From contig OZ245817.1 of NCBI GenBank assembly GCA_965228475.1, positions 4,608,001 to 4,672,000 on the forward strand: DNA of 64,000 nucleotides, read 5' to 3'. Positions 14,563-40,425 of the stretch are shown in pieces. The notes beneath the pieces were generated by a model, which saw nothing but the letters and a program-made list of their open reading frames with translations, ran no database searches and was not told the DNA's origin. Origin of the DNA: Myxococcota bacterium. GTDB lineage: Bacteria > Myxococcota_A > UBA9160 > JAFDDA01. The position numbers and the translations under genes were made by a program. How positions within the stretch are numbered: the stretch's first letter is position 1; each line of letters opens with the position of its first letter.

Positions 14563-15015
14563 ACCCACTCCGAACCACGCCAGGAATCGCGCGCTGAAAT
14601 TTCGCGATTCGCGGCGAAAATCGTTGAACGAACGCGAACGAAACGGATCGCGCTGCGGACTTCCGCAGCGGGCAGGGACGCGCGGTGCGCGCGCGAACTC
14701 GCTTCGACAACGCCGCCGAAACGTTTGGAAAGCAAAGACGATCTGACTTCGAAACGAGGGTTAGACTTCGCCTCGTCGGCGCGCATTGGTGCACGAATGC
14801 GTTGCATTGCTGTGTCACTCGCCCGTCGGTTTCAGGACGGATCGGCGTTGCCCGCTTTCGAGTGCTGTGGTTAATTGCGCATGTGTTCGACGGTTGACGC
14901 CGGAACGCTCCAAAGCCGACTGAAACCGCCGAAATTTCCCGACATACCGCCCCGTCGCTGGAAGCCCCCCAAGAGCGGAAGGTCCGACGGCAAAGCCTGG
15001 CAGGAACTTCGACCT

Positions 15016-16440
15016 TTGACTCGCCCCCCCGAGTTCTGGGACGCAATTCTTCGGCGCCTCACGCAAGACGTGCCGGCGCACGAAGTCGAGGCATGGATCC
15101 TTCCCCTCCACGCGGAAGCGGACGGGAAGACGCTGCGCCTCCTGTGTCCGAGTGCTCTCCACTGCAACCGCGTTCGCGACCGGTACCTCGAGCCGATCCG
15201 GCAGGCGGTGCGGCTCCACGCCGAAGAGGCGGGGGAGGACGCGCCCGTCGTGCGGCTGGCGCTCGCGGATTCGCCGCCGCCCGAGCGGCGGCTCGCGAAG
15301 GTCGAGCCGGACGAGGCGAACGTCCCGGAAGCCGGGGCCTCGGAGGCACCCGCGCGGGTCGCGGCGCGCGCGGGCCTGCGCGAGCCGGCGCCGCGCCGCA
15401 TGGCCCGCGCCGTCCAACAGAGTTTCGACAACTTCGTGGTCGGCCCGCCGAACGCGCTGGCGCGCGAAGCGGCCGTGGCGCTCGCGGCGGGCAGCCAGCG
15501 CGAGGTGAATCCCCTCTACCTGGCCGGCGATTCCGGCCTCGGGAAGACGCACCTGGCGCGCTCGGTCGCCGGTACCGTGCGCCGAACGGACGCGCGGGTC
15601 CTCTACACCTCGGCCGAGGGCTTCACCTCGGACTTCCTCGGCTCGCTGCGCAACCGCGAGGTTCCGCGCTTCAAACGCCGCTACCGCGAGGACTGCGACG
15701 TGCTGGTGCTCGAGGACGTCGACTTCCTCGGCGGGAAGGAATCCACCCAGCTCGAGCTGTTCCACACCGTGGCGCACCTGCTCGACACCGGTGCGCGCGT
15801 GGTCTTCACCGGCGCGCGGCTCCCGCGCGAGATCCCGGCGCTCGACCGCCGGCTCGGCGCCCAGATGGCGAGCGGCCTCGTCGCCGAGCTCGCGCCGCCG
15901 GACACGGAGCTCCGCCGCAGCATCCTGAAGAACCGCGCCGCCGCCGGCGGCATCCGCATCCCCGAAGACTGCGTCGAGCGCATCGTCGAAGCCGTCCGCG
16001 GCAGCGTGAGCGACCTCGAGAGCGTGCTCGGCCAGATCGTCGCCTCGGCCACGCTCCTGAAGCAGCCCGTCGATCTCGCGCTCACCGACGCGGCCCTGCG
16101 CAAGCTCGGCCCGGGCGAGAGCCGCACCCTCGGCAACCGGCGCGTGGCGCCGCGCGAGGTCATCGAGATGGTGGCCGCGTTCTTCGGCACGACGCCCGAG
16201 GCCCTCTGCTCCCGCTCACGCCGGCGCGACATCCTGCTCCCGCGCCAGCTCTCGATGTACCTGTGCCGCCGCTTCACGGACGCGAGCTTCTCGGAGATCG
16301 GCCGCGCCCTCGAGCGCGACCACCCCTCGGTACGGAACGCCGTCTCATCGGTCGAGCGCCAGATCCTCGAGCGCGCGCCGCTGCGCTACCAGGTCGAGGC
16401 CCTCTGCGACCGGCTCGAGCACCTGCGGGGCGAGCGCTAG
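15016..16440 (+). CDS. dnaA: DnaA-family protein (divergent paralogue of the replication initiator)
   Basis: Domain I (W...WILPL), SFDNFVVG..N, NPLYLAGDSGLGKTHL, domain IV PRQLSMYL...EIG...RDH. Several catalytic residues are substituted. TTG start approximate. Confidence 0.85.
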   Translation: MTRPPEFWDAILRRLTQDVPAHEVEAWILPLHAEADGKTLRLLCPSALHCNRVRDRYLEPIRQAVRLHAEEAGEDAPVVRLALADSPPPERRLAKVEPDEANVPEAGASEAPARVAARAGLREPAPRRMARAVQQSFDNFVVGPPNALAREAAVALAAGSQREVNPLYLAGDSGLGKTHLARSVAGTVRRTDARVLYTSAEGFTSDFLGSLRNREVPRFKRRYREDCDVLVLEDVDFLGGKESTQLELFHTVAHLLDTGARVVFTGARLPREIPALDRRLGAQMASGLVAELAPPDTELRRSILKNRAAAGGIRIPEDCVERIVEAVRGSVSDLESVLGQIVASATLLKQPVDLALTDAALRKLGPGESRTLGNRRVAPREVIEMVAAFFGTTPEALCSRSRRRDILLPRQLSMYLCRRFTDASFSEIGRALERDHPSVRNAVSSVERQILERAPLRYQVEALCDRLEHLRGER

Positions 16441-16476: not shown

Positions 16477-19400
16477 TCAGCGAGTGACCCGCTGAAGCTC
16501 GCGCTGCGACATCAACGCCTCGGCCTTCTTCCGAGCATCGGCCGCCTCCGAGACCTCGCCCGCAGCCATCAAGGAGGCGGAGTAATAGAGCCAAGCCGTA
16601 CCGGAACGAGGGAACCTGCGCGTCGCGTCCCGGAGGACGGTTCGAGCCTCCTCGGGGTGCCCGGCACGGAGCAGGAACAAACCGTAGTTCGCCGCAGCAC
16701 GGTCGTTCCCCGGTTCCGCGTCGATCCATTTCCGAAAGGCCGGCTCGGCCACGCGGTTCTCACCGAGGTCGGTCGCCGCAAGCGCGACCGCCGAGAGCGC
16801 CAGTGGGTGGCCTGGGTGGCGCTCTTCGAACCGTTGAGCCTCTTCCAGAGCACCCCTGGAATCGCCCGCGGCGCTGAGTGCCATGGCGTACCGGTGTGCG
16901 AAGCGCGGATCGTCGGGCGCCAGCTCCGCGGCCCTCCTTGCAGGCTCTACGGCATCTTCCTTCCGGCCGACGGCATCGAGGAAGTTCGACAGTGCGAACT
17001 CGATCTGCGGGCTCGGGGTCGGCTGCGCCTCTCTCGCCGCAAAGAGGACCGACTCGGCCTTCTCCCTCTGGCCGTCATCCCAGAGCTGCAGCGCATATCG
17101 GAGCAACGCGTCGGGATGACTGGGGTGAGCGGCGAGCAGGCGCTGCCATGCCAGGAAGATGCCCGCCCGACTGCCATCCTGTTCGGCGATCCCGGCCAGC
17201 AGCCAGAGGACCGCGAAGTCGTTCGGGTCCTCCTCCAACAGCTTCTGGGCTTCCTCTCGAGCCTCCGCGAACTTTCCCTCTCGCGCGAGAATCTTCGCGT
17301 CGAGCAGGCGAGCGTACGGATCTTTCGGACGAATTCGCAATGCAGCCGCCGCCGAGTGCCGCGCTTTGACCAGCGCACCCGCCTGAAGCGCCGCCTCTCC
17401 TCGCAGCGTGTAGAAGTTCGGCGAGTTCCGATAGTACTGCTCGACCGAGTCGAGCAGTACGGCGGCTGCGCGGTGATCGCCTGCCTCGAGGGCGCGAGCT
17501 GCAGCCCGGCGGGTCTCCGCCGCATCTTGCAGCTCGACTTCGGTCGCCCGAGGCCCGGACTTCGAGACGTCGCCCGGCGGGTCCGTGAGAAGCCCGATTG
17601 CTCCGAGAGCGATCCCAGCTCCCACGCTCGCGCCGAACAAGCCGCGGCGGAAGGGGCCCCTGCGCGGCGTGGACACGGTTGCCCCGGCACGCTCGAAGGC
17701 ACGATCCCGCTCGGAACAGTAGGACGGCCATTCCTCCGGAGAGATCTGCGCCTGAGTCGTCCGCCAGCGGTAGTCGAAGGTTGCCTGCTTGCGTTCCCCC
17801 TCGACGACGCAGCTGTACTCGAAACCAGGACCCGAGAAACGGTGGTCCTCCCGGCCCGGGCGTTCCACGCTGTTTCCGCGCACCACCACCCGGTGGTGGG
17901 CGGTCATCGGATAGCGGAGCACCCATGGTTGCCGCCGCGTCTCGCTCCCGTCTATTTGATCGATAACGAAGAACAGGCCGTGGGCGCCGTAGCGAAACTC
18001 CGTAGGGGTCTTCGAACTCTCGGGGCCCCAGGAGGGCAGCCCGTGACGCGTGCGAACACGGATGACGTTCGCGATCGGGTCATCTTCGACATCCGCAGGA
18101 TCCTCACTGGCGACCAAGGCGGGGAAGTAGGACTGAAGCGCCTCGGCGCGGACCCGGGTGAATGCACTCTTTCCGTCTCTCACGATCGAAGCTCGGACGG
18201 CGTCCGCCAGCGACCCCGAGGCCACGATGAGCTGTTCGACGGACCCCTCTTTCTGCTTGTGGTCCAGAAGGAACGTCTCGATGACACTGAAGTCGGTGGC
18301 TGCCGGTTCGGGAAGCGGGGTCAGCGCGTCCGCCCCTTCTCGGATCTCCAGGCCGCAGCCATACGATGCCGGGGTCCGGTGTTCGAGGTCCCCTCGCTCA
18401 CCGATCAGTGTCGGGTCAACGTAGTGCTGCTTGCCCTCGAACTCGACACTTACGATCGCATGCGAGAACGCCGCATTGGAGGGTTGTAGACGCTGGACGC
18501 CCTCCATCCAGTTCGAAGCCACGAGCATCGGACAGGCATCGACACCCAGCTCTCGCAGCAACGCTGTCAGAAGAACCGACTTGTCCTTGCAATCGCCGAA
18601 ACGTCTGCGGACGACACTACCAGCCCCACCCGGGAGCATTCCGGCACCGGTGCCGAAGTCGACCACGAGGTAGCGGATGTCCTCCTGCACGAACCGAATG
18701 GCTTCGCGAACGAGTTCTTCGCCCGTATGCTCAGCCCGAAGTTGGGCTGCCTGGGCGGCAATCGACTCACCGCCCTCTGCCAGAGCGTCCGCCCAGAGCG
18801 AATCGAAGAACGACGAGACCTCTCCCCAGCTGCGCCAGCCGGACACCTCGACGAGTGGGAAAGGCCACTCCGTCGTAGGAGAGTTGTTCTCGATCTCGAC
18901 CCGAGGAGGGTCCTCCAGCGTCCAGGAGATCCGGTCACCGTATTCGGTCTCGCGCGGACTCGGCGAACCCGGGTGCTCATGGAGGTTCCACCGGACCGGC
19001 GACGCGGCACTACGTCGGACCGAGAACGAGACCCTGGCGACGGGGAAGTTCCACGCGAAAGGAAACAGCGCGGTGAACTGCTCCCCCGGGAGAACCTCGA
19101 TCGGTTCGAGCGACCAGGAGAGATCGATCGCATCCCCGACGCGAACGTCCTCGAGAAGGGCAACGAGGGAGAGCCGTCCCGTCAGGGTCTGTTGCTCGAG
19201 CTGCTGCTCCCTCTGACGGAGCAGGAAGTCGCCGCGCTCTGCCCTGCTGACCTCTCCCCAGACCTCTCCCTCACCCTTGCGCAGCAGTGCGAGCGAGTGA
19301 ATCGCAAGACGGTGGGCAGCTGGGTCGAAATCGACCTCGACCTGGCTCAAAGCCTGGACTGCGGAGTGGGTCTGGAGGCGGCGAACGTTCCGGCAGTAGA

Positions 19401-19566
19401 CCGACCGACTCGCCACATCGTTCTGCTCATCGAGCAGAAGACAGGATATTGCGTGATCCTCGGAAGCTGGAAAGTCCCACACCGGTTCTTGGATTGTCAC
19501 CCAGGCCGGAGTCGCGGCGAGTTGCCACTCGGCGTCCTGAGGTCCGACGATACGCCGAATCGACAT
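16477..19566 (-). CDS. DUF3857 + transglutaminase-like + TM + TPR-repeat protein
   Basis: LLDEQ, DVRVGD, FVQEDIRY, FGDCKDKS, FSHAI, YVDPT; single TM, then many TPR-like helical repeats. Confidence 0.85.
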   Translation of the reverse strand: MSIRRIVGPQDAEWQLAATPAWVTIQEPVWDFPASEDHAISCLLLDEQNDVASRSVYCRNVRRLQTHSAVQALSQVEVDFDPAAHRLAIHSLALLRKGEGEVWGEVSRAERGDFLLRQREQQLEQQTLTGRLSLVALLEDVRVGDAIDLSWSLEPIEVLPGEQFTALFPFAWNFPVARVSFSVRRSAASPVRWNLHEHPGSPSPRETEYGDRISWTLEDPPRVEIENNSPTTEWPFPLVEVSGWRSWGEVSSFFDSLWADALAEGGESIAAQAAQLRAEHTGEELVREAIRFVQEDIRYLVVDFGTGAGMLPGGAGSVVRRRFGDCKDKSVLLTALLRELGVDACPMLVASNWMEGVQRLQPSNAAFSHAIVSVEFEGKQHYVDPTLIGERGDLEHRTPASYGCGLEIREGADALTPLPEPAATDFSVIETFLLDHKQKEGSVEQLIVASGSLADAVRASIVRDGKSAFTRVRAEALQSYFPALVASEDPADVEDDPIANVIRVRTRHGLPSWGPESSKTPTEFRYGAHGLFFVIDQIDGSETRRQPWVLRYPMTAHHRVVVRGNSVERPGREDHRFSGPGFEYSCVVEGERKQATFDYRWRTTQAQISPEEWPSYCSERDRAFERAGATVSTPRRGPFRRGLFGASVGAGIALGAIGLLTDPPGDVSKSGPRATEVELQDAAETRRAAARALEAGDHRAAAVLLDSVEQYYRNSPNFYTLRGEAALQAGALVKARHSAAAALRIRPKDPYARLLDAKILAREGKFAEAREEAQKLLEEDPNDFAVLWLLAGIAEQDGSRAGIFLAWQRLLAAHPSHPDALLRYALQLWDDGQREKAESVLFAAREAQPTPSPQIEFALSNFLDAVGRKEDAVEPARRAAELAPDDPRFAHRYAMALSAAGDSRGALEEAQRFEERHPGHPLALSAVALAATDLGENRVAEPAFRKWIDAEPGNDRAAANYGLFLLRAGHPEEARTVLRDATRRFPRSGTAWLYYSASLMAAGEVSEAADARKKAEALMSQRELQRVTR

Positions 19567-19639
19567 CGCTCCATCATACGCGATTCCCAGCACGGCGTTC
19601 GCCCCAGACGGCCCGGCAGGCAACGGCTAGAGTCACCCG

Positions 19640-20413: not shown

Positions 20414-20994
20414 TGAGCGGCGAGGCGCGCGCCTGCGAGGAGTGCTCGCTCTGCTGCGTGGTCCTGCGCGTGGACGAGCTGGCGAAGCTCGGCGGAACAC
20501 CCTGCCCGGAGCTGCGCGCACCCGAAGCGGGCGGCGGGTGCGGCATCCACGCGCGGCGGCCGGGGATCTGCCGCGGCTACCGCTGCCTCTGGCTACAGGG
20601 CGGGCTCGAAGCGACGGACCGGCCGGACCGGCTCGGCGCGGTGCTCGATCTCCTCACGACGGGCGCCGAGACGCGGCTCGAGATCCGCGAAGCCGAGCCC
20701 GGCGCCTTCGAGTGCTCGCCCCGGCTTCAGGAAATCGCCGAGAAGTACCGCGCGGCCATGCCCGTTCGGATCCTCGACGTGGGCGACGTGCTCGACGCGA
20801 GCCGCCCCGAGCGCGTGCTCCTGCCGGGCGGGCGCGAGCGGCGCGTGGCGGGCGAGCGGGTGACGGAGCTCGAGGACGGGCGCGTCGTTGGCGAGCACCG
20901 CATCCCGTGGCTCGAGCGGACCCTCCGGCGGGTGCGCATCGCCTGGCAGCGACGGCGGTTCCGCGGCTACCGGGGCTCTCCCGAGGAGCGCTAG
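20413..20994 (+). CDS. CxxCxxCC (YkgJ-like) zinc/iron-chelating protein
   Basis: CEECSLCC...C...CGIHARRPGICRGYRCLW; TGATG coupling to amn. Confidence 0.8.
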   Translation: MSGEARACEECSLCCVVLRVDELAKLGGTPCPELRAPEAGGGCGIHARRPGICRGYRCLWLQGGLEATDRPDRLGAVLDLLTTGAETRLEIREAEPGAFECSPRLQEIAEKYRAAMPVRILDVGDVLDASRPERVLLPGGRERRVAGERVTELEDGRVVGEHRIPWLERTLRRVRIAWQRRRFRGYRGSPEER

Positions 20995-22724
20995 CGGGCT
21001 CGGTCGAGCACCCGGTAGCGCTCGCCGTCGATCAGGATGTCGCGGTGGGCCGGCTCGACCGCTTCGATGCGCCCTTCGCGCATGGCGTCGAAGAGTTCGA
21101 GGACACGCGGGGCGCGCGGTGCGTTCAGGCTTTCTCCGATGCGCTCGAAGCCTTCGTTCGTCTCCGCAAGCAGATGGAGCTGCGCCCAGTGCTCCGTGCC
21201 GATGGCGACGAGCCATTCGAGCGGGGGCTCGCCATCGTAGTCGAAGGGCGCCGCCTTGCAGAAGTTGTCGCCGCCACATCCGTGGCCGTGGCTCGCCTGG
21301 GCCATGTTGCGGATGGCAGCGTGGAGTCCTTCCGGCAAAGCCTTCTCCGTCAGGAACTCGAGCCCCTCGCTCCCGGGCCGCTCCTGGTTCCACTCCCAGT
21401 AGTTCGTGTGGAGCCGCGTGCGTTCCATCTGCGCGAGGATCTCGGCGTGCTCGGGGTGGCCGGTGAGACCGGCGAGCGCCTCGAAGCGCTCCGCACCCAC
21501 CTGGCCGAGCTGGAAGTAGAGCGTGCCGTAGTCGAACTCGGCGGCGCTGGCGCGGCCCTCGGCGAGGCGCGCGAACTGGCTGCGCGCGCTCAGCCCGAGC
21601 GGGTCGAGCCACGGCGTATGGGTCAGGAGGCCGAGCGCCACCGCGAGCAGCGCCACGAACAGGTTCACCGCACGGATCGCGCGCAGCCACGGCGTGCCGC
21701 GGCGGAGGACCGCCCCCGCGTAGCCGAAGGCGTAGGCCCCGAGCACGATCGTCGCGAGGGCCATCCACACCCGCTGGGGCGTGAGCCCGTATTGCCCGAT
21801 GCGCGCAGAGATGCCGTAGGCCGCGATCGCCGCGAAGACCGCCATGGCCAGGAGCGCCGCCTCGACGAGCCAGCGCATCGGCCCGGGCAGCCCGCCCTCG
21901 CGCTCGGAGCCGTCCTGATAGACCGCATTCAAGAAGAGCACCGTGAGCGCGACCCAGGTGAGCAGGAGCTGCGAGGCGTGGTTCGTATCCCAGAGCACGT
22001 CGAGCCCCGTGAAGGGGAGCACGGCCAGGAAGATCAGCGCGACGAAGGCCACGAGCGGCAGGAGCCCGCGGAAGACCGCGAGCGTGATGCCCCGCAGCGT
22101 CGAGACCACGCGCTCGCTCTCGCGCCCGAGCGCCACGCCGAAGCCGGCGGCCGCGCCCGTCACCACGGAGATGAAGCACGCCTTGCCGAACAGATCGCCG
22201 AAGAAATCGATGCCGACCAGCTCGAAGAGCGCGGCCCAGAGGAAGAGCACCGTCCAGAGCGCCGCGACGAACAGCGCGCCCACGAGGGCGACGAAGAAGT
22301 TGTTCCAGCCGTGGAGGAAGAGATCCTCGTAGGGGAAGTGCAGCCGCCCCGTGCGCTGGAAGATCTGGAGGAAGGGCCCGAGCACGTAGAGCGTCACGAG
22401 CGCTGCGATCACCCAGGTGGCGACGCGCTGCTGATCCTGCCGGTGGATCTCGAACTCGACGGGCACCACCCAGCCGACCCACCCGGCCGTCGCGGCGTAG
22501 ACGAGCCCCGTCCCGACCGCGAGCGCGACGAGCCGCCCGCGCGAAGCCCCGGACCAGACGAAGTGGAAGACCAGGCTCGAAACGGCAAGAAAGGAGAGAA
22601 GCGCGGCCGCGCCGGCGCGCGCCGCATGCTCGTCGGGCCAGGCCTCGGCCAGGACCCAGATGGCGAGGCCCTGCAGGCCGCCGGTGACGGCTAGCCACAG
22701 TCTGTCGCGCACGTCCTCGGGCAT
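20991..22724 (-). CDS. DUF4153 family membrane protein
   Basis: Multi-TM; YEDLFLHGW, RIGQYGLTPQR, LSARSQFARL, FDYGTL. Confidence 0.8.
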   Translation of the reverse strand: MPEDVRDRLWLAVTGGLQGLAIWVLAEAWPDEHAARAGAAALLSFLAVSSLVFHFVWSGASRGRLVALAVGTGLVYAATAGWVGWVVPVEFEIHRQDQQRVATWVIAALVTLYVLGPFLQIFQRTGRLHFPYEDLFLHGWNNFFVALVGALFVAALWTVLFLWAALFELVGIDFFGDLFGKACFISVVTGAAAGFGVALGRESERVVSTLRGITLAVFRGLLPLVAFVALIFLAVLPFTGLDVLWDTNHASQLLLTWVALTVLFLNAVYQDGSEREGGLPGPMRWLVEAALLAMAVFAAIAAYGISARIGQYGLTPQRVWMALATIVLGAYAFGYAGAVLRRGTPWLRAIRAVNLFVALLAVALGLLTHTPWLDPLGLSARSQFARLAEGRASAAEFDYGTLYFQLGQVGAERFEALAGLTGHPEHAEILAQMERTRLHTNYWEWNQERPGSEGLEFLTEKALPEGLHAAIRNMAQASHGHGCGGDNFCKAAPFDYDGEPPLEWLVAIGTEHWAQLHLLAETNEGFERIGESLNAPRAPRVLELFDAMREGRIEAVEPAHRDILIDGERYRVLDRAR

Positions 22725-22736
22725 CCGTCTTGGATG

Positions 22737-23927
22737 CTACGCAATTCGGGAGATCGCGACGATGACCCACGCGACTCCGACGAGATGGAGACCTCCGAGA
22801 AGGAAGGCACTCACACCCACCCACTTCGGAGTGACCGCCATCGCGAGCTGCCCCGGGCGGATCAACGGCAATGCGATCAGGGCTCCAGACAAGAATCCGG
22901 CCAGGTGACCTGCAGTAGCGGCGTTCTCGATCACCCAATCCGTCATGGCAGCAAAGACGAGCACGTAGGCAAACATCCGCCACGGCAATCGCAAGGTGGC
23001 CGGGAGCTCTCGCCGGCGGAACACGTTGATCGACAGGAACGAGCCCATTGCGCCGAACACCGCCGCCGAAGCGCCCACAGCCGGCTGATCGGGATGGAGG
23101 AACGCCCAGCAGGACGCACCGACCAGCGAAGAGAACCCGAGGACGACGAGAAATCGTCGACTTCCGACTGCGTTCTCCAGCAGCATGCCGAGGGAGACCA
23201 GGGCGAAGAGGTTCCCCGCCAGATGGAGCGTCCCGACATGCAAGAGAACTCCGCTGAACAGCCGGACCCACTGACCCGCGGCGACTTCGTTCCCGATCAC
23301 GGATCCGAGCGGATCGAGAGCCCCCGCGTCTTCGAACCCACCTGAAAACCACATGGCCAAACCGATTCCCAGCAGAACGGAGGCGAGACAGAGGGTCACC
23401 AGCGGCGGGCTCGCTAGAGATCGGTCTGCGATCGTCGCTCGGTCCTCGAGAGACTCGGTCCAGCCGCCGGGAAGCCGTCGACGCACTTCCCGGTAGAACT
23501 CGCCCGCCCGTTCGACGGACCCGAACTGTCTGAAAGCGACTGCGATCGGCGCTCTCCCCGCTACCCCGATGCGAACCACGCGAGGCAACCGGTCGTGCCA
23601 CTCCAGACTGAAGATCTCGCCGAAAGGAACGATTCCCGTAACCCTCGACGCCGGATCTCGGAAGACGATTCCATCGCCATCGACGGCTACGCTCGACCCG
23701 TCCTGAAGCAGCCGCCGGATCTGACGGAGGGAGGCCCATCCGTTGACGATCGCCGCGGCGAGGTGGAGTAGTGCCCACACGAGGACGCGATCGGGATCGG
23801 CGAAGACTCCGATCGCCGTGACCGCCTGCCCCCCCATGCCGGCCGTAGCCGCCTCGATCTCGTAGCCGACGATCGACCCGTGCTTGAGTCGCCAGATCCC
23901 CCCTCCACTTCCAGCCGGGTCACTCAC
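22737..23927 (-). CDS. rhomboid intramembrane serine protease with N-terminal TM + soluble extension
   Basis: WVRLFSGVLLHVGTLHLAGN, GASAA (catalytic Ser), GHLAG (catalytic His); GTG start overlaps the RHS stop (GTGA). Confidence 0.9.
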   Translation of the reverse strand: MSDPAGSGGGIWRLKHGSIVGYEIEAATAGMGGQAVTAIGVFADPDRVLVWALLHLAAAIVNGWASLRQIRRLLQDGSSVAVDGDGIVFRDPASRVTGIVPFGEIFSLEWHDRLPRVVRIGVAGRAPIAVAFRQFGSVERAGEFYREVRRRLPGGWTESLEDRATIADRSLASPPLVTLCLASVLLGIGLAMWFSGGFEDAGALDPLGSVIGNEVAAGQWVRLFSGVLLHVGTLHLAGNLFALVSLGMLLENAVGSRRFLVVLGFSSLVGASCWAFLHPDQPAVGASAAVFGAMGSFLSINVFRRRELPATLRLPWRMFAYVLVFAAMTDWVIENAATAGHLAGFLSGALIALPLIRPGQLAMAVTPKWVGVSAFLLGGLHLVGVAWVIVAISRIA

Positions 23928-26900
23928 TGGGACTCCGACCCCTTCGGACGTTGCCGCGACCTGCTCCGAGCAATCAGGATTGCAAGCAACAGCTGAAGCG
24001 GAAGCAACGTGGCAACGCTCTTCCATCCGGCCGGGACCCGGGTGATGGACTGAGGCGAACAGAACGCACCGGCCATGCCTGCGATCACCGCTGCGCTGAA
24101 GAAGGCGATGCTGACGCCGCTTAGCGTACTCGCCACGAGGAGAGCCCCGTACAAGCCGAGTCCCCAGCCCAACGCACCGAACCCGAAAGAGAAAGCAGTG
24201 AGAACTGCTGCGGCCCTCTCGGCGCTCCGGTCCGGATTCGTCCCCTCCGGATCCGAGAACCACACCGGGTTTCCCAGCGTGTAGGAGAACTGGTTCACGA
24301 GCTGGAAGATCGGGTCCGGGGAGAGGAAGCGGCCGGCGGCGGGGTCGTAGATGCGTTCGCCGAGGATCATGAGATCGCCGAACTCGGCGCGGCCGACGAA
24401 ACGGATCGGGTCGTCGCTGGCTCCGTGCACCGCGGCAACGCCGTAGCCGTCGTACTCGTAGTGGCTGCGGACCACTCCGGCGTGGTCCGTGGTGAACTTG
24501 ACGTTCCCCCGGAAGTCGAAGTGGCGGTACTGGTGCTGGCCGGTGATCAGGTCGATGCGAACGTCGCCGAGGTCCATGCTGACGGGAAGGCCGTAGGCGT
24601 CGGCCTGGACCGCTCCGCCGAAGCGGCGCTGCAGCGTGACGCCCGCCACGGTCGAGGAGACGAGCCGCCCGGTCATGTCCCAGGCGAGTTCGTCCAGACC
24701 GTGGGAAGCAAGGCGGCCGTGCGCCGTCCAGGTGATCGGGATGCCGCCGCGTTCGGTCACGAAGCCGGCTTCGTCGTACTGGTAGCTCCCGACACCTTCG
24801 GCATGGACCAGGCGGTTGCCTTCGGCGTTGTACGCCAGCGGGCCGCGCGGACTCTCGAGCAGGTTCGACTTGGCATCCAGGAAGTAGTTCCCGATGCTTC
24901 CGATCCCAGCGAGTTGGGGACCCGCCGCATTGGGACCTGGAGACGGTGCGAGGTAGTAGGCTTCCTCGGTCGCCACCTCGACGCCTCCGAAGGTCTGGGT
25001 CGTCGCCCCGACGAAGTCGAGCCCGAAGCCGATCCGGGTCAGGACCGTCGATTCGACGACGTCGCCGCCGGCATCGCGGGTCGAAGCCGAATCGAGGCCG
25101 CCGATGTCCGGCTGGTAGTCGAACTCGCGCGTGAGCCCGTTCCCGTAGCGGATCTCCGCGATTCGACCTTCCTCGTACCGACGCTCGACCAGCACCGAGC
25201 CTCCCTCGCGGATCTCGACCTCGCGGCCGGCGCCATCGTACGCACGGGTGACGTCCGCGACGACCTGGAAATCCGCCTCGACGTGGACTTCGCTCGTTCG
25301 GCGCGACCGCAGGTCGTGGCCGAAGACCGTGAAGGACCCGTCGCCGTGGGTGACGGCGCTCGTGCGCCCGGCGGCGTCGTAGGCGAACTGCTCCACCCTG
25401 CCTCCCATCGTGTCGTCGCTCGAGACGAGGAGACCGCCCTGCCAGGTCAGCGTCTGCGTTCCTTCGAGCGCACCGTCCCGCAGGGCTCTCACGAGGACCG
25501 GGCGTCCGTCGTCGTCGTAGACGGTCTCACGGCGCATCCCGTTCGGACGTTCCACGGCGGTCTCCCGCCCCATCGCGTCGTGGGTGAAGACGGTCGAGTG
25601 CCAGGAACCATCAGCGAACTCTCGGCGCTCGATCAGACGGCCGAAGGCGTCGTAGATCATCTCGTGATCGTCACCCGCATCGCGTGTGATGGCGGTCTGC
25701 TGACCGTCGGCCCGGACGTCGATCGCGATCACTCCGGTCTTCAGCTGCAGGGACCGGAGGTTGCGGTCGGCGTCGTAGCTACGAGTGACGACACCGCCCA
25801 CCTCCGGGCCACTCCCCCCGGTGCCACGGACGAGGTTCCCGACCTCGTCCCATTCGCTCTCGAGATCGAAGCCGTCGATCGTTACCACCGAGGCGTGGCC
25901 GTGCTCGCCGTAGTCCGAGTAGCTCGCCATGACACCGTCCGGGTCGGTCCGACTCGCGAGGTTCCCGTCGGCGTCGTAGGTGAAGGTCGTCGTCTCACCC
26001 GCTCCGTTCGCCCGGCTCGAGAGCCGCCCGGCTGCATCGTAGGTGCGGAGCTCCAAGAGACCCAACGCATCCAACGCCTGGAGCAACGGGCGGCGGTTCG
26101 GATCCTCGCGGTTCGCTGCGGTCGGTGCGTAGGTGTACTGGATCACGTTCCCCGAGGGCTCGGTCTCGGCTCGGACGTCGTCGTCGATCCACGTCCATGT
26201 GCGGACGGACCCATCGGGTTCGATACGCTGCACCGGCCGAACGCCGCTCCAGGCGATCTGCGTCCGGTCACCCGATCCGACGAGCAGGAGCTCCACCAAG
26301 CGCCGGCTCTCATCGAACGCGAAGCGCCGCTCCCCGCCGACGGCCGGGAAGTAGCGCGTGTGGTAGAGGCCGTCGCTCTTGCCCTGATACGAGAAGGTGT
26401 GGACGGCGTCGGGTGTCCCGACGAGCCGGACCTCGGTGACGCGGCCACCGGCCACGGCGATCTCCGTTCGCTCGCCGTCCGAGGTGGTCATGGCGGCGAG
26501 CTGGCCGCCCGCATATTCATAGGTGAAGCCGGGGCGCGACTCCGCGACATCGAGCCCATCGCGAGCGTTCACGAGTCGGTCTGCCGCGTTCCAGGCGAAT
26601 GCGGCCTGGCGCCCCGTCCGGTCGGTGACGGCGACCAGCCGTGCCGACGCGTCGTAGCCCAGATCGAAGAACGTCGAGCAGCTCGCGGGCGCCGAGCACT
26701 GATCGATGCGAAGGATGCGCGTCGTCCCGCCGACCCCGCCCGACACGTAGTGGAGTCGCGGATAGCTCGCGTCCGACCAATGCTCCGTTTCGAGCCGGCC
26801 GGCGGCATCGAACGTCCAGACGACTCCCCCCTTCGTTCGAATCCGGTTGGCGTCGAGCTTCACCCAATGCGTCCCCGGGATCGCGGCGCCGTCGGAGAGC

Positions 26901-27256
26901 GAGGAGACGTCGTGCGTGGCGCCCGAGGGGTCGAGAAAGCTCACGCCGTCGTAGCGAACGTCGAAGTTCCAGAGCCATGCCGCCGCGGCGGCGTCGTAGA
27001 CGGCGGCGATCTCCCGCGTTCCCAGGCGGGTGTCGATCGCCAGATCGACGCGGCGGATCGAGAGGTTCCCGCCGATCGTGTTCACCCGCATCAGCCCGAC
27101 TTCAACGATGGCGTCCTCCTGATATTCGTAGACACCGGCTCGCGGCGTCAGCGCGGGGTTGGGCGGCGGGCAACCGAGCATGGGAAGACAGAGAGCCTGA
27201 AGGATCGCCAGGGCCCGAACCTTCACCGAGTGGGTAGTCGTGCGCGTTCGATGCAT
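23924..27256 (-). CDS. RHS/YD-repeat protein with lipoprotein signal and hydrophobic C-terminal cargo
   Basis: Signal ending LPMLGC; many YDxxGRL repeats; RHS core RIYDPAAGRFLSPDP...YTLGNPVWFSDPEG; GGAG SD 8 nt before ATG. Confidence 0.92.
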   Translation of the reverse strand: MHRTRTTTHSVKVRALAILQALCLPMLGCPPPNPALTPRAGVYEYQEDAIVEVGLMRVNTIGGNLSIRRVDLAIDTRLGTREIAAVYDAAAAAWLWNFDVRYDGVSFLDPSGATHDVSSLSDGAAIPGTHWVKLDANRIRTKGGVVWTFDAAGRLETEHWSDASYPRLHYVSGGVGGTTRILRIDQCSAPASCSTFFDLGYDASARLVAVTDRTGRQAAFAWNAADRLVNARDGLDVAESRPGFTYEYAGGQLAAMTTSDGERTEIAVAGGRVTEVRLVGTPDAVHTFSYQGKSDGLYHTRYFPAVGGERRFAFDESRRLVELLLVGSGDRTQIAWSGVRPVQRIEPDGSVRTWTWIDDDVRAETEPSGNVIQYTYAPTAANREDPNRRPLLQALDALGLLELRTYDAAGRLSSRANGAGETTTFTYDADGNLASRTDPDGVMASYSDYGEHGHASVVTIDGFDLESEWDEVGNLVRGTGGSGPEVGGVVTRSYDADRNLRSLQLKTGVIAIDVRADGQQTAITRDAGDDHEMIYDAFGRLIERREFADGSWHSTVFTHDAMGRETAVERPNGMRRETVYDDDGRPVLVRALRDGALEGTQTLTWQGGLLVSSDDTMGGRVEQFAYDAAGRTSAVTHGDGSFTVFGHDLRSRRTSEVHVEADFQVVADVTRAYDGAGREVEIREGGSVLVERRYEEGRIAEIRYGNGLTREFDYQPDIGGLDSASTRDAGGDVVESTVLTRIGFGLDFVGATTQTFGGVEVATEEAYYLAPSPGPNAAGPQLAGIGSIGNYFLDAKSNLLESPRGPLAYNAEGNRLVHAEGVGSYQYDEAGFVTERGGIPITWTAHGRLASHGLDELAWDMTGRLVSSTVAGVTLQRRFGGAVQADAYGLPVSMDLGDVRIDLITGQHQYRHFDFRGNVKFTTDHAGVVRSHYEYDGYGVAAVHGASDDPIRFVGRAEFGDLMILGERIYDPAAGRFLSPDPIFQLVNQFSYTLGNPVWFSDPEGTNPDRSAERAAAVLTAFSFGFGALGWGLGLYGALLVASTLSGVSIAFFSAAVIAGMAGAFCSPQSITRVPAGWKSVATLLPLQLLLAILIARSRSRQRPKGSESQ

Positions 27257-28112
27257 GGAGGATGCTCCGAGGGGACCGCGCGGGGTGGGAAAGAAAGGGT
27301 TCTGGCGAAGCCTTGCGCCGGGACAGCGCCGTCTGCGCGACGTGCAGGACGGACCAGAAGAGGTAGACAGCGGGCCCGAACACGAGGATCCGGAGCTCCT
27401 CGACGCGCGGCCCGGCCGCGAGAAGAGCCAGACCGACGGCGACGGGAACGGCGTGGGCGATGAAGAGCCTGCGCGCCGCCGTGCGCCCTCCTGCGGCATC
27501 GCCGGATCGCATTCTTGCCGTGGCTCTGCGAACCGAGAAGACCAGCCAGACGGCGACGTGGTACCCGGTCAGGACGGCGAAGGTATCGACGAAGGAGGGG
27601 CCAACGAACGGCATCGCGAGATCCGGGTAGACCGCCCTCACCTCTGGAGAGGAAACGGCCAGGAACGTGATCCCCGACGCACCCACGACGGCGATGCGAT
27701 GGCCCCGACGGTTCGCGGCGATCGGGGGCAGGCCTCCGATGGCCCCGCTCGACCGCTGAGACAGCTCGTTCTCGAGCACGTGCCAGTTCGAAACGGTGAG
27801 CAGCCCGAGTACCGGAAGCGGCGAAGCCAGGGCCGCCTGCCCGAATGCCTCCACCCCGGCCCCGTAGAACCCGAACACCACGGCGATGGAGGTCCAGACG
27901 AATGCCGTCCACAGGGCCCGCGGCGCACCTCCCGGGCGGGGGAAGACGGGCGGGGCGAACCATGCGGCGCCAAGAAGATGGCCGTAGCCGACCAACGTGA
28001 TGCAGAAGTAGACGTTCTCGGCGCGGCGAGGTGCATCCGGCCACAGGACGTGGGAGGCGGCCACGAAGGCGACGGGAACCGCCAACGCCAGGGCGCGATC
28101 AAACGATGCCAT
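27102..28112 (-). CDS. multi-pass membrane protein with four intramembrane His (Brp/Blh-like pattern)
   Basis: About 7 TM with GYGH, SNWH, GYH, SVLH; 3' end overlaps the RHS start. Confidence 0.7.
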   Translation of the reverse strand: MASFDRALALAVPVAFVAASHVLWPDAPRRAENVYFCITLVGYGHLLGAAWFAPPVFPRPGGAPRALWTAFVWTSIAVVFGFYGAGVEAFGQAALASPLPVLGLLTVSNWHVLENELSQRSSGAIGGLPPIAANRRGHRIAVVGASGITFLAVSSPEVRAVYPDLAMPFVGPSFVDTFAVLTGYHVAVWLVFSVRRATARMRSGDAAGGRTAARRLFIAHAVPVAVGLALLAAGPRVEELRILVFGPAVYLFWSVLHVAQTALSRRKASPEPFLSHPARSPRSILHASNAHDYPLGEGSGPGDPSGSLSSHARLPAAQPRADAASRCLRISGGRHR

Positions 28113-28785
28113 GGAGGCGACCCTCCCCGCCGCGCTCCCATCGTGCGATCCGAGCGCCCTGCCATGCGAGCGACGCCGACCCGAGAACCAGGGATGGCGC
28201 GACCATGGCCTCGATCCCGACCAGAGCGGCCGCGTTGAGCCCCGCGTGGGCTGCCATGCAGAAGGCGACGCTCCGGGTGAACTCGTACGCGGCCGCGAGC
28301 CCGACGCCCACGAAGGCGGTGCCGAGCACGGGCCACGGCTCGCCGTGGGGAAGCGCGAAGAGGAGGGCGCTCGCGAGCAGGCGGAGAGGTAGCCCCCATC
28401 GCAACCCCCGCAGGGCTTCGAGGAGCCGTTCCCGGTAGAGGAGTTCTTCGAAGGCCGGCGCCAGGACGAGAACGGCGACGACCGTCGAAAAAGCAGGCGT
28501 CGCCGTCGGCGGCTCGAACGGCTCGAAGCCCATCGCTTCGCCAACCGCCGCGATCACGACCCCCCACCCGGCGTAGCCTGCTCCGCCGACGCAGAAGCCG
28601 GCCGCGACGGTCGACGGTCTCGGGAACATCATCGGTGCATCGCGTTCGAGCATCACGGCGCCGAGGATCAGCGCGAAGGCCGCCGCCGTCGCCGCGTCCC
28701 GGCCCTGCTCCGCGAGCATCGAGGTGACGGCCCACGGCACGGTCCACACGAGCAGGATCAGCGAGAGGAGACGGACCACGTCCAT
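28099..28785 (-). CDS. CPBP (Abi/CAAX type II) intramembrane glutamic endopeptidase
   Basis: EELLYR, FALPH, HAGLN motifs intact. Confidence 0.92.
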   Translation of the reverse strand: MDVVRLLSLILLVWTVPWAVTSMLAEQGRDAATAAAFALILGAVMLERDAPMMFPRPSTVAAGFCVGGAGYAGWGVVIAAVGEAMGFEPFEPPTATPAFSTVVAVLVLAPAFEELLYRERLLEALRGLRWGLPLRLLASALLFALPHGEPWPVLGTAFVGVGLAAAYEFTRSVAFCMAAHAGLNAAALVGIEAMVAPSLVLGSASLAWQGARIARWERGGEGRLHGIV

Positions 28786-29366
28786 CCCCCACTGTGCCGG
28801 CACGACAGAACGATCCCTGCGACGACCCAGCCCGCAGCGGGAATCGCGGCGGAGACGGCCGGCGCCCCGAACGGCGGAATCGGCCGAAGCGGCTCGCTCG
28901 CGAGGCGGATGGCGCCGAGCCCGAAGAGAACGAGAGGGAGAAGCAAAGACGGGGCGACGTGTCGAAGAAGCGCATCGAGGCCCGCCGCCCCGGCGATCTC
29001 GACCGCCGCGGCCGAGACAAGATCCCCGGGGCGATGGCAACATCCCGCCACGAGACATCCCAGACGAGCGGTGGCAAAGGCGAGCGGAAGCGCGCCGAGG
29101 GCCGCCGCCGCGTACCGGCCCTGGAGTCCTCCCGTCCCCGCGACGCTCACCAGTACGCCGAGAGGGAGGAACACGATGGAGAACCCGGCGAGCGCTTCGG
29201 ACTCGAAAGCCCCGAGGTGGAGCGCGCGCCATCCGAGGTGCGCCGCGCACACGCCGAGCGCGAGGCCGGCGAAGAAGCGAGGCCCCTCCCCCGCCTCGCC
29301 GCCGCGCTCGAAGAAGCGCACGACCGCGACGGCGGACGCGCCCTGCCACAGCAAGAGCTGCATCAT
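28758..29366 (-). CDS. prolipoprotein diacylglyceryl transferase (Lgt)-like protein
   Basis: ARLGCLVAGCC and IRLASEPLR match the Lgt R-x-G-C/N and RxxxExxR signatures; shorter than canonical Lgt; start could be 29462. Confidence 0.7.
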   Translation of the reverse strand: MMQLLLWQGASAVAVVRFFERGGEAGEGPRFFAGLALGVCAAHLGWRALHLGAFESEALAGFSIVFLPLGVLVSVAGTGGLQGRYAAAALGALPLAFATARLGCLVAGCCHRPGDLVSAAAVEIAGAAGLDALLRHVAPSLLLPLVLFGLGAIRLASEPLRPIPPFGAPAVSAAIPAAGWVVAGIVLSCRHSGGWTWSVSSR

Positions 29367-29611
29367 CCCGGCCTCGAAGAAGTCGAGCCGGGCGAAGACC
29401 CCGGCCAGAAGCACCAGGAGCCATGCCCGTGAGATTCGCAGCGAGGAAGTGCGTGCCCGCATCGTGAAGCGAGCCTATGGCGCCCGCTCCACGCGCGTCA
29501 GGTAGACGGGACGGACTTCTTCGCGCGCTTCGCTCTGCGATGGGCGCGCTCGAGCGGACTGTCACATGGCTTTCAGGGAAGGGTCACGAGCGTATCCGCG
29601 GGTTCACCGCG

Positions 29612-30877
29612 CTACTCGGTTCCCGCGATCGCCTCGTCGAGCGCCGCCGTGCGCGTGCGTGCGCCCTTGCCCTGTTTGCGCCAGCGCGCCGGGCCCGAGA
29701 GCTCGGGCTCGCGCACGGGCTCGAGGCTCGTCGGGTCCTTCTCCGGGTCGTCGAAGCGGGCGATCACGCCGTAGGTGGTGCTGCGCTCCACGGGCGTGCG
29801 GCCGACGGAGCGGATCAGCGCGCGCATCTCTTCCGCGGGGAAGTTCTCGCCGTGCTGGGAGCCGGATTCGCGGCTGATGGATTCTTCCATGAGCGTGCCG
29901 CCCATGTCGTTGGCGCCGGCGTCGAGGCACATGGCGCCGAGCTTCGGGCCCATCTTCACCCAGGAGACCTGGATGTTCGTGATCCACGGGCGCAGGAAGA
30001 GGCGGCCGACGGCGATCATGCGCAGGTCTTCCGCGGCCGTCGAGCCCGGGCGCGCGCCGAGGAAGTTGAAGAGCGTGTTCTTCTCGTGGATGAAGCCGAG
30101 GGGGACGAACTCGGTGAAGCCGCCCGTTTCTTTCTGGAGCTCGCGCAGGAGGCCCATGTGCTCGGCCACCTGGCGCGGGGTCTCGATGTGGCCGTACATG
30201 CAGGTGCTGCTCGAGCGCACGCCCGCGGCGTGGGCCGCGCGCACGATCTCGACCCAGCGCTCGCGCATGATCTTGTTCGGCGAGATCTGCTTGCGGACCG
30301 CGTCGTCGAGGATCTCGGCGGCGGTGCCGGGCATCGTGCCGAGGCCGGCCTCCTTCAGCCACGCGAAGACCTCGGCCAGCGGCATCCCGCTCTTGCGTTG
30401 GATGAAGTCGATCTCCTCGGGCGAGTAGGCGTGGATGTGGAGCTTCGGGAACTCGGCCTTGATGGCGCGCAGCACCTCCACGTAGTGCTCGGCGGTCTTG
30501 CGCGGGTCGATGCCGGCCTGGATGCAGACCTCGCTCGCGCCGCGGGCCACGGCATCCCGGCACTTCTCGAGGATCACCTCGTGCGGGTGATCGTAGGCGT
30601 CGGCCTCCTCGCGGTGGCGCGAGAAGCCGCAGAAGGAGCAGCCGACGTAGCAGACGTTGGTGAAGTTGATGTTGCGGCAGACGACGTAGGAGACGTCGTC
30701 GCCCGAGTCGTCCTGGCGGGCGAGATCCGCCGCGCGGGCGAGCCAGTGGAGGTCGGCGCCTTCGGCGCGCAGGAGGCGTTCGGCTTCGTCGGTCGAGAGC
30801 TCGCGGCCCTCGAGGGCGCGGTCGAGGATGGTGCGGACGTCCGGCGAGACGCCGCCGAGCAGGCGTTCGAGACTCAT
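29612..30877 (-). CDS. cofH: FO synthase subunit CofH (radical SAM)
   Basis: NINFTNVCYVGCSFC, MPGTAAEIL, MYGHIE, GFTEFVPL, QVSWVKMG, GANDMGGTLMEESI; adjacent to cofG. Confidence 0.9.
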   Translation of the reverse strand: MSLERLLGGVSPDVRTILDRALEGRELSTDEAERLLRAEGADLHWLARAADLARQDDSGDDVSYVVCRNINFTNVCYVGCSFCGFSRHREEADAYDHPHEVILEKCRDAVARGASEVCIQAGIDPRKTAEHYVEVLRAIKAEFPKLHIHAYSPEEIDFIQRKSGMPLAEVFAWLKEAGLGTMPGTAAEILDDAVRKQISPNKIMRERWVEIVRAAHAAGVRSSSTCMYGHIETPRQVAEHMGLLRELQKETGGFTEFVPLGFIHEKNTLFNFLGARPGSTAAEDLRMIAVGRLFLRPWITNIQVSWVKMGPKLGAMCLDAGANDMGGTLMEESISRESGSQHGENFPAEEMRALIRSVGRTPVERSTTYGVIARFDDPEKDPTSLEPVREPELSGPARWRKQGKGARTRTAALDEAIAGTE

Positions 30878-40366: not shown

Positions 40367-40425
40367 GTGGGACTCCTGAGAAACGGACGAGGAGATGCGA
40401 TGGGAAAGCGGCGGCCGGCTGGGAA

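Follow-up and report, generated by a model that had tools for sequence, protein, structure and literature searches.

What is the function of the hydrophobic tail that ends an Rhs/YD-repeat lipoprotein of a Myxococcota bacterium, and which of the neighboring genes act on it? The lipoprotein is encoded in the 64,000-nucleotide stretch that we analyzed (assembly GCA_965228475.1, contig OZ245817.1, positions 4,608,001 to 4,672,000), referred to below as the window. It belongs to an operon with the order Lgt paralog, CPBP protease, protein X, Rhs lipoprotein, and rhomboid protease, in which the reading frames of the three upstream genes (the trio) overlap. The initial annotation of this DNA offered two alternatives for the tail: a pore-forming peptide toxin, or a CTERM-like sorting signal cleaved by the CPBP or the rhomboid protease and lipidated at a Cys by the Lgt-like enzyme. 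Our analysis suggests that each alternative would hold for one part of the tail, the pore-former reading fitting the hairpin only. On balance, the operon probably specifies an Rhs toxin that is exported by Sec and served by a dedicated pathway for lipidation of its C-terminus, in which a caged membrane peptide would be lipidated on its Cys and clipped. We consider the sorting part of this explanation very likely and the toxin part likely.

The tail combines a variable hairpin with a conserved Cys-containing signal

Translation of positions 24241-23927 of the window (minus strand) reproduced exactly the 105 residues initially attributed to the tail, directly after the Rhs core. The three hydrophobic helices were recovered in Kyte-Doolittle 19-residue windows starting at tail residues 19 (1.56), 43 (2.03), and 73 (1.78), and the sole Cys (residue 1066, codon 24061-24059) and the Arg cluster were found as described. 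In keeping with the reported lack of a nuclease, deaminase, or ADP-ribosyltransferase motif, the tail had no Pfam match and no meaningful NCBIfam match. The length of the cargo had to be corrected: cleavage of Tse5 occurs four residues after the second Asp (PMC10684867; statements taken from the cited reports apply to the parts of them on which we draw), and this register moves the start of the cargo to residue 1007, leaving 104 amino acids (aa). Residues 1007-1065 form the hairpin and residues 1066-1110 the sorting signal. The proposed glycine zipper was absent, the Rhs protein of the window containing no GxxxGxxxG motif. Over the family, this motif was enriched in the 59 cargoes (31 occurrences versus 11 ± 3.6 expected), and the Pfam Gly-zipper model gave a sub-threshold match in 1 of 26 tails.

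The tails of the homologs consist of a hydrophobic hairpin, a Gly/Ser-rich linker, and an optional signal. Of 118 homolog tails, 96 have two transmembrane (TM)-like segments ahead of the linker; at least two such segments occur in 7 of 64 unrelated Rhs tails. All-pairs identity among homologs was 47% for the cage, 66% for the core, 22% for the hairpin (an approximate figure for this low-complexity sequence), and 47% for the last 35 residues. The Rhs proteins thus have the variable C-terminal cargo that is expected of polymorphic toxins. The protein of the window lacks the Gly/Ser linker, and its core-to-Cys distance of 60 aa is the shortest of 92 (median 93.5). A second class of cargo, alternating and beta-hairpin-like, is found at L064, L252, L253, L268, and L061 (genomes G044, G088, G089, G096, and G011); these loci have either tail type, and two of them then have a rhomboid gene.

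The signal of the window, designated type A, starts with Cys-[Ser/Ala]-Pro, which is separated by about 12 residues from a helix that has Gln or Asn at its center and is followed by Arg residues. Cys and Pro are invariant in the type A alignment by selection of its members. In the alignment of ortholog tails that the initial annotation had proposed, Cys1066 was conserved in 87 and Pro1068 in 84 of 93 homologs, a set biased toward the type A tail since the query contained it; Gln or Asn occupied the helix center in 89 of 92. Among 64 unrelated Rhs C-termini, a single one had C[SA]P near its end. A filter for Cys, TM helix, and basic cluster retained 21 open reading frames (ORFs) of this genome, and roughly half of these encode ordinary membrane proteins. 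The layout alone is therefore not rare, and it is its conservation that exceeds chance.

A type A profile had one strong match among the 10593 ORF ends of the window's genome. Profiles of each part of the operon were also run on 146 genomes of the order, each at least 85% complete, and all type A matches at E<1e-4 were at Rhs ends with the exception of two orphan copies in genome G008. These two copies (L238:100-456 and L136:12039-12320) have no Rhs core and lie near contig ends, one of them directly upstream from X-Lgt-CPBP; they are either orphan cassettes or the remains of unassembled Rhs copies. In G021, the type A tail is out of frame at a G run in the linker (L037:4600-4760) and the close relative P0004 is in frame, indicative of an assembly error or of phase variation.

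Three membrane-protein genes co-occur with the type A tail

The Rhs lipoprotein was found in 81 of the 146 genomes, which is a floor owing to a stricter first look in the Rhs search. The tail was of type A in 43 genomes and of type B in 14; it was missing in 20 and truncated or unknown in 4. The type A count of 43 includes four genomes that have one of three motif variants and a further copy with a frameshift, and the tail type of 12 genomes was deduced from a profile match at the Rhs end instead of a reading of the tail. The automatic classifier was too strict, since 11 of the 19 tails that it labeled 'other' were of type A by eye and one more was the frameshifted type A copy. Type B is a housekeeping Cys-Gly-x-Gly tail that is also found at the end of about 22 further proteins of the window's genome, most of them large (counted by eye among 33 entries of a pattern list). 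This signal comprises Cys-Gly-x-Gly, often Glu, a short hydrophobic stretch, and an Arg cluster, as at G000:C1 79438-82542, 459801-463304, and 4099493-4105357. Since some orthologs carry the housekeeping tail, the end of the Rhs protein appears to be a slot for an exchangeable sorting signal.

The trio genes were distributed according to the tail type (the 4 genomes with truncated tails were left out of these counts). The Lgt paralog was detected in 38 of the 43 type A genomes versus none of the 34 other Rhs carriers, intact CPBP in 40 of 43 versus 1 of 34 (a doubtful partial match, from another subfamily), and X in 32 of 43 versus 1 of 34. Every type A genome had at least one gene of the trio, and 39 of the 43 had at least two. 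Scores were bimodal, at 110-276 bits for the paralog and 37-44 bits for ordinary Lgt, with one genome at 70. Among the 26 type A genomes that were outside the seed set of the Lgt and X profiles, 23 were positive for Lgt and 18 for X. The trio occurred in only 1 of the 65 genomes in which Rhs was not detected. In this genome (G144, 88% complete), CPBP, X, and a weaker Lgt paralog lie together at L236:2151-4235, and neither Rhs nor a type A tail was found.

Because related genomes are not independent, contrasts were counted on a tree of the cage, on which the type A state changes 8-9 times. Independent pairs were concordant in 6 of 6 cases with FastTree (p 0.03) and in 5 of 5 with a quick IQ-TREE analysis (p 0.06); the second Rhs copy of G026 was left out of this test. 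The closest relative searched, G001, which belongs to the same genus, has a type B tail and none of the three genes. The trio genes often lie beside the Rhs gene, in an order that is shuffled between genomes. The enzyme of a dedicated system, such as JDVT-CTERM/MrtJ, co-occurs with its client and is encoded nearby (Haft; bioRxiv 10.1101/2023.06.07.544157). The pattern observed here is the same, with two additional genes.

The type A tail is a probable sorting signal outside the named CTERM families

The tail has the tripartite organization proposed by Haft, comprising a motif, a TM helix, and a basic cluster; Cys and Pro are near-invariant with Ser or Ala between them, three residues being asked for. 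The other features of such systems were also found: a predicted signal peptide at the start of the client (Cys29 together with a hydrophobic stretch), homologs with another signal or none (the 14 type B and 20 tail-less carriers), and co-occurrence and proximity of enzymes and client. The conservation of Cys, TM helix, and basic cluster, together with the co-occurrence of the CPBP and Lgt-like genes with type A, strongly supports the sorting-signal alternative of the initial annotation.

The suggested membership in the MYXO-, JDVT-, or GlyGly-CTERM families did not hold, as the tail matched none of these models in the scan, and neither type A nor type B matched any NCBIfam CTERM model. TIGR03901 (MYXO-CTERM) had no match to the tail or to 25 ortholog tails at E≤1, and the locus was not among its 24 matches in the genome. 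MYXO-CTERM signals have no Pro or charge in the helix and many clients, whereas type A has Pro inside the helix and a single client. On the myxosortase core model (NF040914), the operon CPBP gave no match, and the best score was obtained by CPBP L034, 31 bits versus a cut-off of 100 (four other CPBPs of the genome were scanned). JDVT-CTERM agrees with type A in having a single Cys, one client per genome, and an adjacent CPBP, although here X lies between CPBP and Rhs. The Asp-Pro that JDVT-CTERM signals have nine residues after the Cys is lacking, and the CPBP scored 28.5 bits on the MrtJ model (cut-off 75). For GlyGly-CTERM, there is no Gly-Gly before the helix, and the rhomboid protease scored 40.8 bits on TIGR03902 (cut-off 84). 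It is thus strongly supported that the tail is a real variant of Cys-CTERM sorting, apparently outside the named families.

JDVT-CTERM/MrtJ shares with the window's system one client per genome, a single Cys followed by a TM helix and an Arg tail, and a dedicated CPBP nearby (10.1101/2023.06.07.544157). It differs by its DP motif, in place of Cys-[Ser/Ala]-Pro and the mid-helix Gln/Asn, and by a CPBP far above the score attained here; the window's system has, in addition, the Lgt paralog and X, and its client is an Rhs protein from which the tagged piece would be an autocleaved peptide. For MYXO-CTERM, cleavage by a CPBP protease has been shown, and prior lipidation by an Lgt-like transferase, not yet identified, was predicted (Guo et al., PMC11980579). 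MYXO-CTERM/MrtX and the window's system share the phylum and the tripartite Cys tail, and CPBP cleavage, Lgt-like lipidation, and type II secretion are likewise proposed for the window's system (PMC11980579). In contrast to type A, MYXO-CTERM is a housekeeping signal present on dozens of proteins and is described as devoid of Pro and charge in the helix.

The Lgt paralog, the CPBP protease, and protein X

In the Lgt-LspA-Lnt and CAAX prenyltransferase-Rce1-Icmt pathways, a Cys is lipidated, the protein is cleaved beside this Cys, and the new end is modified. The trio could follow the same three-step logic, with the difference that the substrate is the C-terminus of an exported protein and that X matched neither third enzyme in sequence and fold searches.

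The family profile of the paralog matched E. coli Lgt (5AZB) with an E value of 4.9e-6 over most of its length, and 10 of 14 family members matched Pfam LGT (PF01790) at E≤0.1, establishing homology to the Lgt family; the window's paralog itself had no match. The genome has three other, ordinary LGT genes. The catalytic residues of E. coli Lgt are Arg143, Arg239, Glu243, and His103. At the aligned positions, the 14 members have Arg in 12 (Lys in 2), Arg in 13, Glu or Asp in 12, and His in none. Since the Arg and acidic residues are kept but the His is absent, the activity of the paralog is to be regarded as hypothetical. The motifs EExxxR, FxxxH, and HxxxN of the CPBP protease were invariant in 21 of 21 sequences. 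A candidate Lgt-CPBP fusion in L155 coincided with single-base indels relative to L156 and was left uncounted.

Protein X belongs to a compact family (240 representatives) and has no Pfam match, only one weak NCBIfam match, and no PDB sequence match. The best fold matches (Foldseek E 0.066; VIA-align Z 6.3) were generic helical bundles, which does not establish a new fold, and leads from the Atlas were all below 0.9 and unnamed. Fusions of CPBP and X were found in 4 of the 150 X representatives listed. From its residue conservation, we infer that X may perform a metal-dependent step after cleavage. The X frame of the window runs about 50 codons past the end of its homologs and overlaps the Rhs signal peptide by 155 nucleotides (nt; 27102-27256). 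P0255 is a 646-aa X homolog with a C-terminal extension that resembles an alpha/beta hydrolase by eye, a possible hint at the pathway of X.

The Rhs protein is a predicted lipoprotein with autoprotease residues

The Rhs lipoprotein has a single ortholog in its own genome. The Cys29 column is Cys in 88 of 93 homologs; the strict lipobox pattern was found in the first 50 residues of only 52 of 91, start calls being variable. As in Rhs polymorphic toxins, YD repeats are followed by a core with two catalytic Asp. Arg968, Asp981, and Asp1002 are each kept in 93 of 93 homologs, and the catalytic Asp are spaced by 21 residues versus 23 in Tse5. The AlphaFold model (predicted local distance difference test, pLDDT, of 88) has a confident shell, a clear terminal helix, and an unresolved hairpin (pLDDT <50). 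Fold searches with this model retrieved Rhs effectors, Tse5, and a teneurin-like protein (TLP). GspD is present in the genome and VgrG was not detected there, which fits Sec and type II export.

Tse5 of Pseudomonas aeruginosa has an Rhs cage (TM-score of 0.52 versus the window's Rhs model), aspartyl autoproteolysis, and a hydrophobic C-terminal cargo with a cognate immunity gene, as predicted here (PMC10684867). It differs by type VI secretion, a 16-kDa cargo, and the lack of a sorting signal in the published description; the window's protein has a predicted lipoprotein signal, no VgrG was found in its genome, and its cargo is a 6-kDa hairpin with a putative Cys anchor. In parallel with what is predicted for the window's protein, TLPs of Myxococcota (9IFO, TM-score 0.58) combine Sec/signal peptidase II export, a YD shell, a variable cargo, including a membrane-permeabilizing one, and a downstream immunity gene (bioRxiv 10.1101/2025.11.11.687626). 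The window's protein differs from the TLP superfold of FN-plug, NHL, and YD-shell in having no FN-plug or NHL annotated; its 1110 aa contain RHS_repeat and match TEN_YD-shell only weakly, at 17 bits (cut-off 50). A C-terminal lipid-sorting signal is not mentioned in the part of the TLP report on which we draw. Tse5 (PMC10684867) and BiTLP provide precedents for permeabilization of membranes by caged hydrophobic cargoes.

The gene following Rhs usually encodes a small, variable membrane protein

We examined 79 loci. Fourteen of 77 downstream picks were dropped before the Pfam scan as trio genes or shadow ORFs, 63 were scanned, and 4 more were dropped before the covariation test. A rhomboid gene occupies the slot in 13 of the 63 scanned loci, including that of the window. 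The 59 genes compared comprise 43 TM proteins of at most 200 aa and 13 rhomboids, 56 of 59 falling into either class. Small and variable membrane proteins are what an immunity function would lead one to expect. The downstream gene overlaps the Rhs stop codon by 1 or 4 nt in 21 of 63 loci, and cargoes related to each other tended to have related genes behind them (30 of 59 pairs, compared with 38 of 1652).

In the window, a possible GTG start of the rhomboid gene overlaps the Rhs stop codon by 4 nt, the alternative being an ATG at 23837. The catalytic Ser and His are present in 12 of 13 aligned rhomboids, including the window's copy. The gene following Rhs at L157:13390-14187 aligns with rhomboid fusions and has no catalytic Ser/His, suggesting a non-proteolytic version in the slot. 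The GC content at third codon positions is 0.75 for the rhomboid and 0.74 for the cargo versus 0.86 for the cage, as expected if cargo and rhomboid were exchanged as a cassette. The suggestion that the rhomboid might cleave the tail as a sortase was abandoned, since rhomboid genes occur behind tails of either type and are lacking at most type A loci, as at most loci in general. The simplest role for the rhomboid would be immunity by intramembrane proteolysis.

A proposed pathway and its alternatives

In the pathway that we favor, the Rhs protein would be exported as a lipoprotein, and its terminal helix and Arg cluster would stop it in the inner membrane, as its sequence suggests. The Lgt paralog would then add a diacylglyceryl group to Cys1066 and the CPBP would remove the 44 residues behind it. 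For both enzymes the family is established by homology and the link to the tail by co-occurrence, and the chemistry is proposed by analogy to MYXO-CTERM/MrtX. X, linked to the tail in the same manner, would by analogy act further on the new end or on the lipid. The Rhs core, which has the catalytic residues, would cut itself after residue 1006. The predicted product is a 60-residue hydrophobic hairpin of 5.9 kDa before lipid addition, with a C-terminal lipid, held in a cage anchored by the N-terminal lipid and probably displayed via type II secretion, for which GspD is present. The hairpin would permeabilize the membranes of neighboring cells and the gene behind Rhs would protect the producer; at the window's locus, the rhomboid could destroy hairpins inserted in the cell's own membrane. 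More speculatively, the three-enzyme C-terminal lipoprotein pathway, in which the paralog lipidates, the CPBP cleaves, and X caps or remodels, might make a polymorphic lipopeptide toxin from an Rhs-caged peptide, with rhomboids recruited as sequence-tolerant immunity proteins that destroy the toxin in the membrane; this extended scheme is tentative and, taken as a whole, doubtful.

Several observations weigh against the proposed pathway. The Lgt paralog was not detected in 5 type A genomes, CPBP in 3, and X in 11, some of them more than 90% complete; the second tree gave a p value above 0.05; and the profiles were seeded from type A genomes, so that very divergent orthologs elsewhere could have been missed. 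The paralog has no His aligned to E. coli His103 and may act differently or not at all. Furthermore, MrtX processes its tag in E. coli without a dedicated transferase, so that the paralog is not required in general (PMC11980579). With respect to the toxin, the window's cargo lacks a glycine zipper, its release could be hindered by a lipid anchor, and the three helices also fit a three-TM topology in the producer's own membrane. The covariation of cargo and downstream gene is confounded by kinship, the counts being 7 of 32 versus 24 of 1507 for less related pairs. Finally, 16 of the 79 loci, including most of one subclade, have no immunity-like gene by the filter or a trio gene first, although one of the 16, in G033, does have a small gene.

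Two alternatives dispense with the toxin. With the same sorting, the hairpin could be a surface-tethered harpoon or recognition peptide that bridges cells, in adhesion, membrane exchange, or kin recognition, the downstream gene encoding its cognate partner. A C-terminal lipid and a long flexible linker, at the median core-to-Cys distance of 93.5 aa, would tie the peptide to the producer; the Rhs gene occurs widely across the order, mostly as one copy per genome; an evident immunity gene is missing in one subclade; and TraA, an outer membrane exchange protein, is a Cys-CTERM protein (PMC11980579). This reading is unlikely, as 20 orthologs have no anchor, some of them ending right after the hairpin, the window's protein has no linker, and toxin and immunity genes are usually arranged in this way, as in TLPs, with a small variable TM gene coupled to the stop codon. 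Alternatively, the whole tail could be a three-helix anchor in the producer's inner membrane, with autoproteolysis shedding the empty cage and neighboring proteases clearing the stub. An out-in-out-in topology, which places the Cys outside and the Arg cluster inside, would be self-consistent, the second helix is very hydrophobic in some homologs, and the rhomboid and the CPBP are both intramembrane proteases. However, such an anchor would not account for a hairpin twice as variable as the cage or the CTERM, for variable small genes downstream, or for the beta-hairpin-like cargoes, and we consider it quite unlikely.

The other alternatives reassign the proteases. CPBP genes have been suggested to confer bacteriocin self-immunity, and the entire 104-residue tail could accordingly be a pore-forming peptide, with the CPBP acting in immunity instead of sorting. 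The CPBP, however, tracks the tail type and not the hairpin, the 34 Rhs carriers with other tails lacking it apart from the doubtful case; it travels with the Lgt paralog; and the conserved Cys would have no explanation, making this proposal very unlikely. Least probable of all is a downstream rhomboid that cuts the terminal helix as rhombosortase does for GlyGly-CTERM. The rhomboid is adjacent and appears catalytically intact, and type A tails are present at 11 of the 13 rhomboid loci, but most type A loci have no rhomboid, rhomboids also follow type B tails (G044 and G088), and the rhombosortase score and the lack of Gly-Gly do not fit. The rhomboid as sortase, the CPBP as immunity protein, and a glycine zipper in the window's protein were therefore rejected.

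The favored pathway would provide a gene candidate for the Lgt-like transferase predicted for Cys-type C-terminal signals (PMC11980579). The operon brings together a candidate transferase, a candidate protease, and a single client in a set small enough to be rebuilt in E. coli, and adds a third membrane protein, X, to the candidate sorting pathway. It also presents an Rhs cargo for which a membrane anchor of its own is predicted, and it suggests that rhomboid proteases may act in toxin immunity. A search of the open-access literature found no description of the type A tail, the trio pathway, an anchored Rhs cargo, or rhomboid immunity. The present analysis contributes a quantification of the correlation between tail and enzymes, together with protein X, the exchange of tails, and the immunity slot.

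Features of the locus and other genes

The features of the operon are collected in Table 1. Positions 20500-30500 of the window were present as one piece in contigs of 2 public runs, with zero differences, and the pieces of a third run concurred; these runs may include the source sample. A search for promoter-like sites at the locus found none.

Table 1. Positions of the operon features in the window.
Feature	Position	Strand	Basis or remark
Divergent Lgt paralog, about 202 aa, candidate Cys diacylglyceryl transferase	28758..29366	-	Family profile
CPBP (Rce1-like) intramembrane glutamic protease, 228 aa, candidate sortase	28099..28785	-	PF02517
Protein X, multi-helix membrane protein, five invariant His and Glu-Asn	27102..28112	-	Alignment
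Rhs/YD-repeat lipoprotein, 1110 aa	23924..27256	-	RHS_repeat, TIGR03696; start ATG 27256, alternative GTG 27226
Lipoprotein signal peptide (predicted), ends in Cys29	27170..27256	-	Hydrophobic stretch and Cys column
Rhs core with aspartyl autoprotease residues Arg968, Asp981, Asp1002	24242..24541	-	Each invariant
Polymorphic Gly/Ala-rich hydrophobic hairpin, putative membrane toxin	24062..24241	-	Low identity among homologs
Unnamed C-terminal sorting signal (putative), type A: Cys-[Ser/Ala]-Pro motif, TM helix having Gln or Asn at its center, Arg cluster	23924..24061	-	Conservation
Rhomboid protease with N-terminal extra domain, immunity slot	22737..23927	-	PF01694, E 7e-24

Two more large Rhs/YD proteins are encoded at G000:C1 389496-398945 (about 3150 aa) and 1021069-1027932 (about 2280 aa). 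They have other C-termini, with no Cys tail, and the first has a lipoprotein-like start. Elsewhere in the window, a DUF3857 and TPR membrane protein of lower GC content is encoded at 16477-19623 (minus strand), with a dnaA gene nearby at 14875-16440, and a 1667-aa protein combining a subtilase domain with FG-GAP and RCC1 repeats is encoded at 35726-40729 (minus strand).

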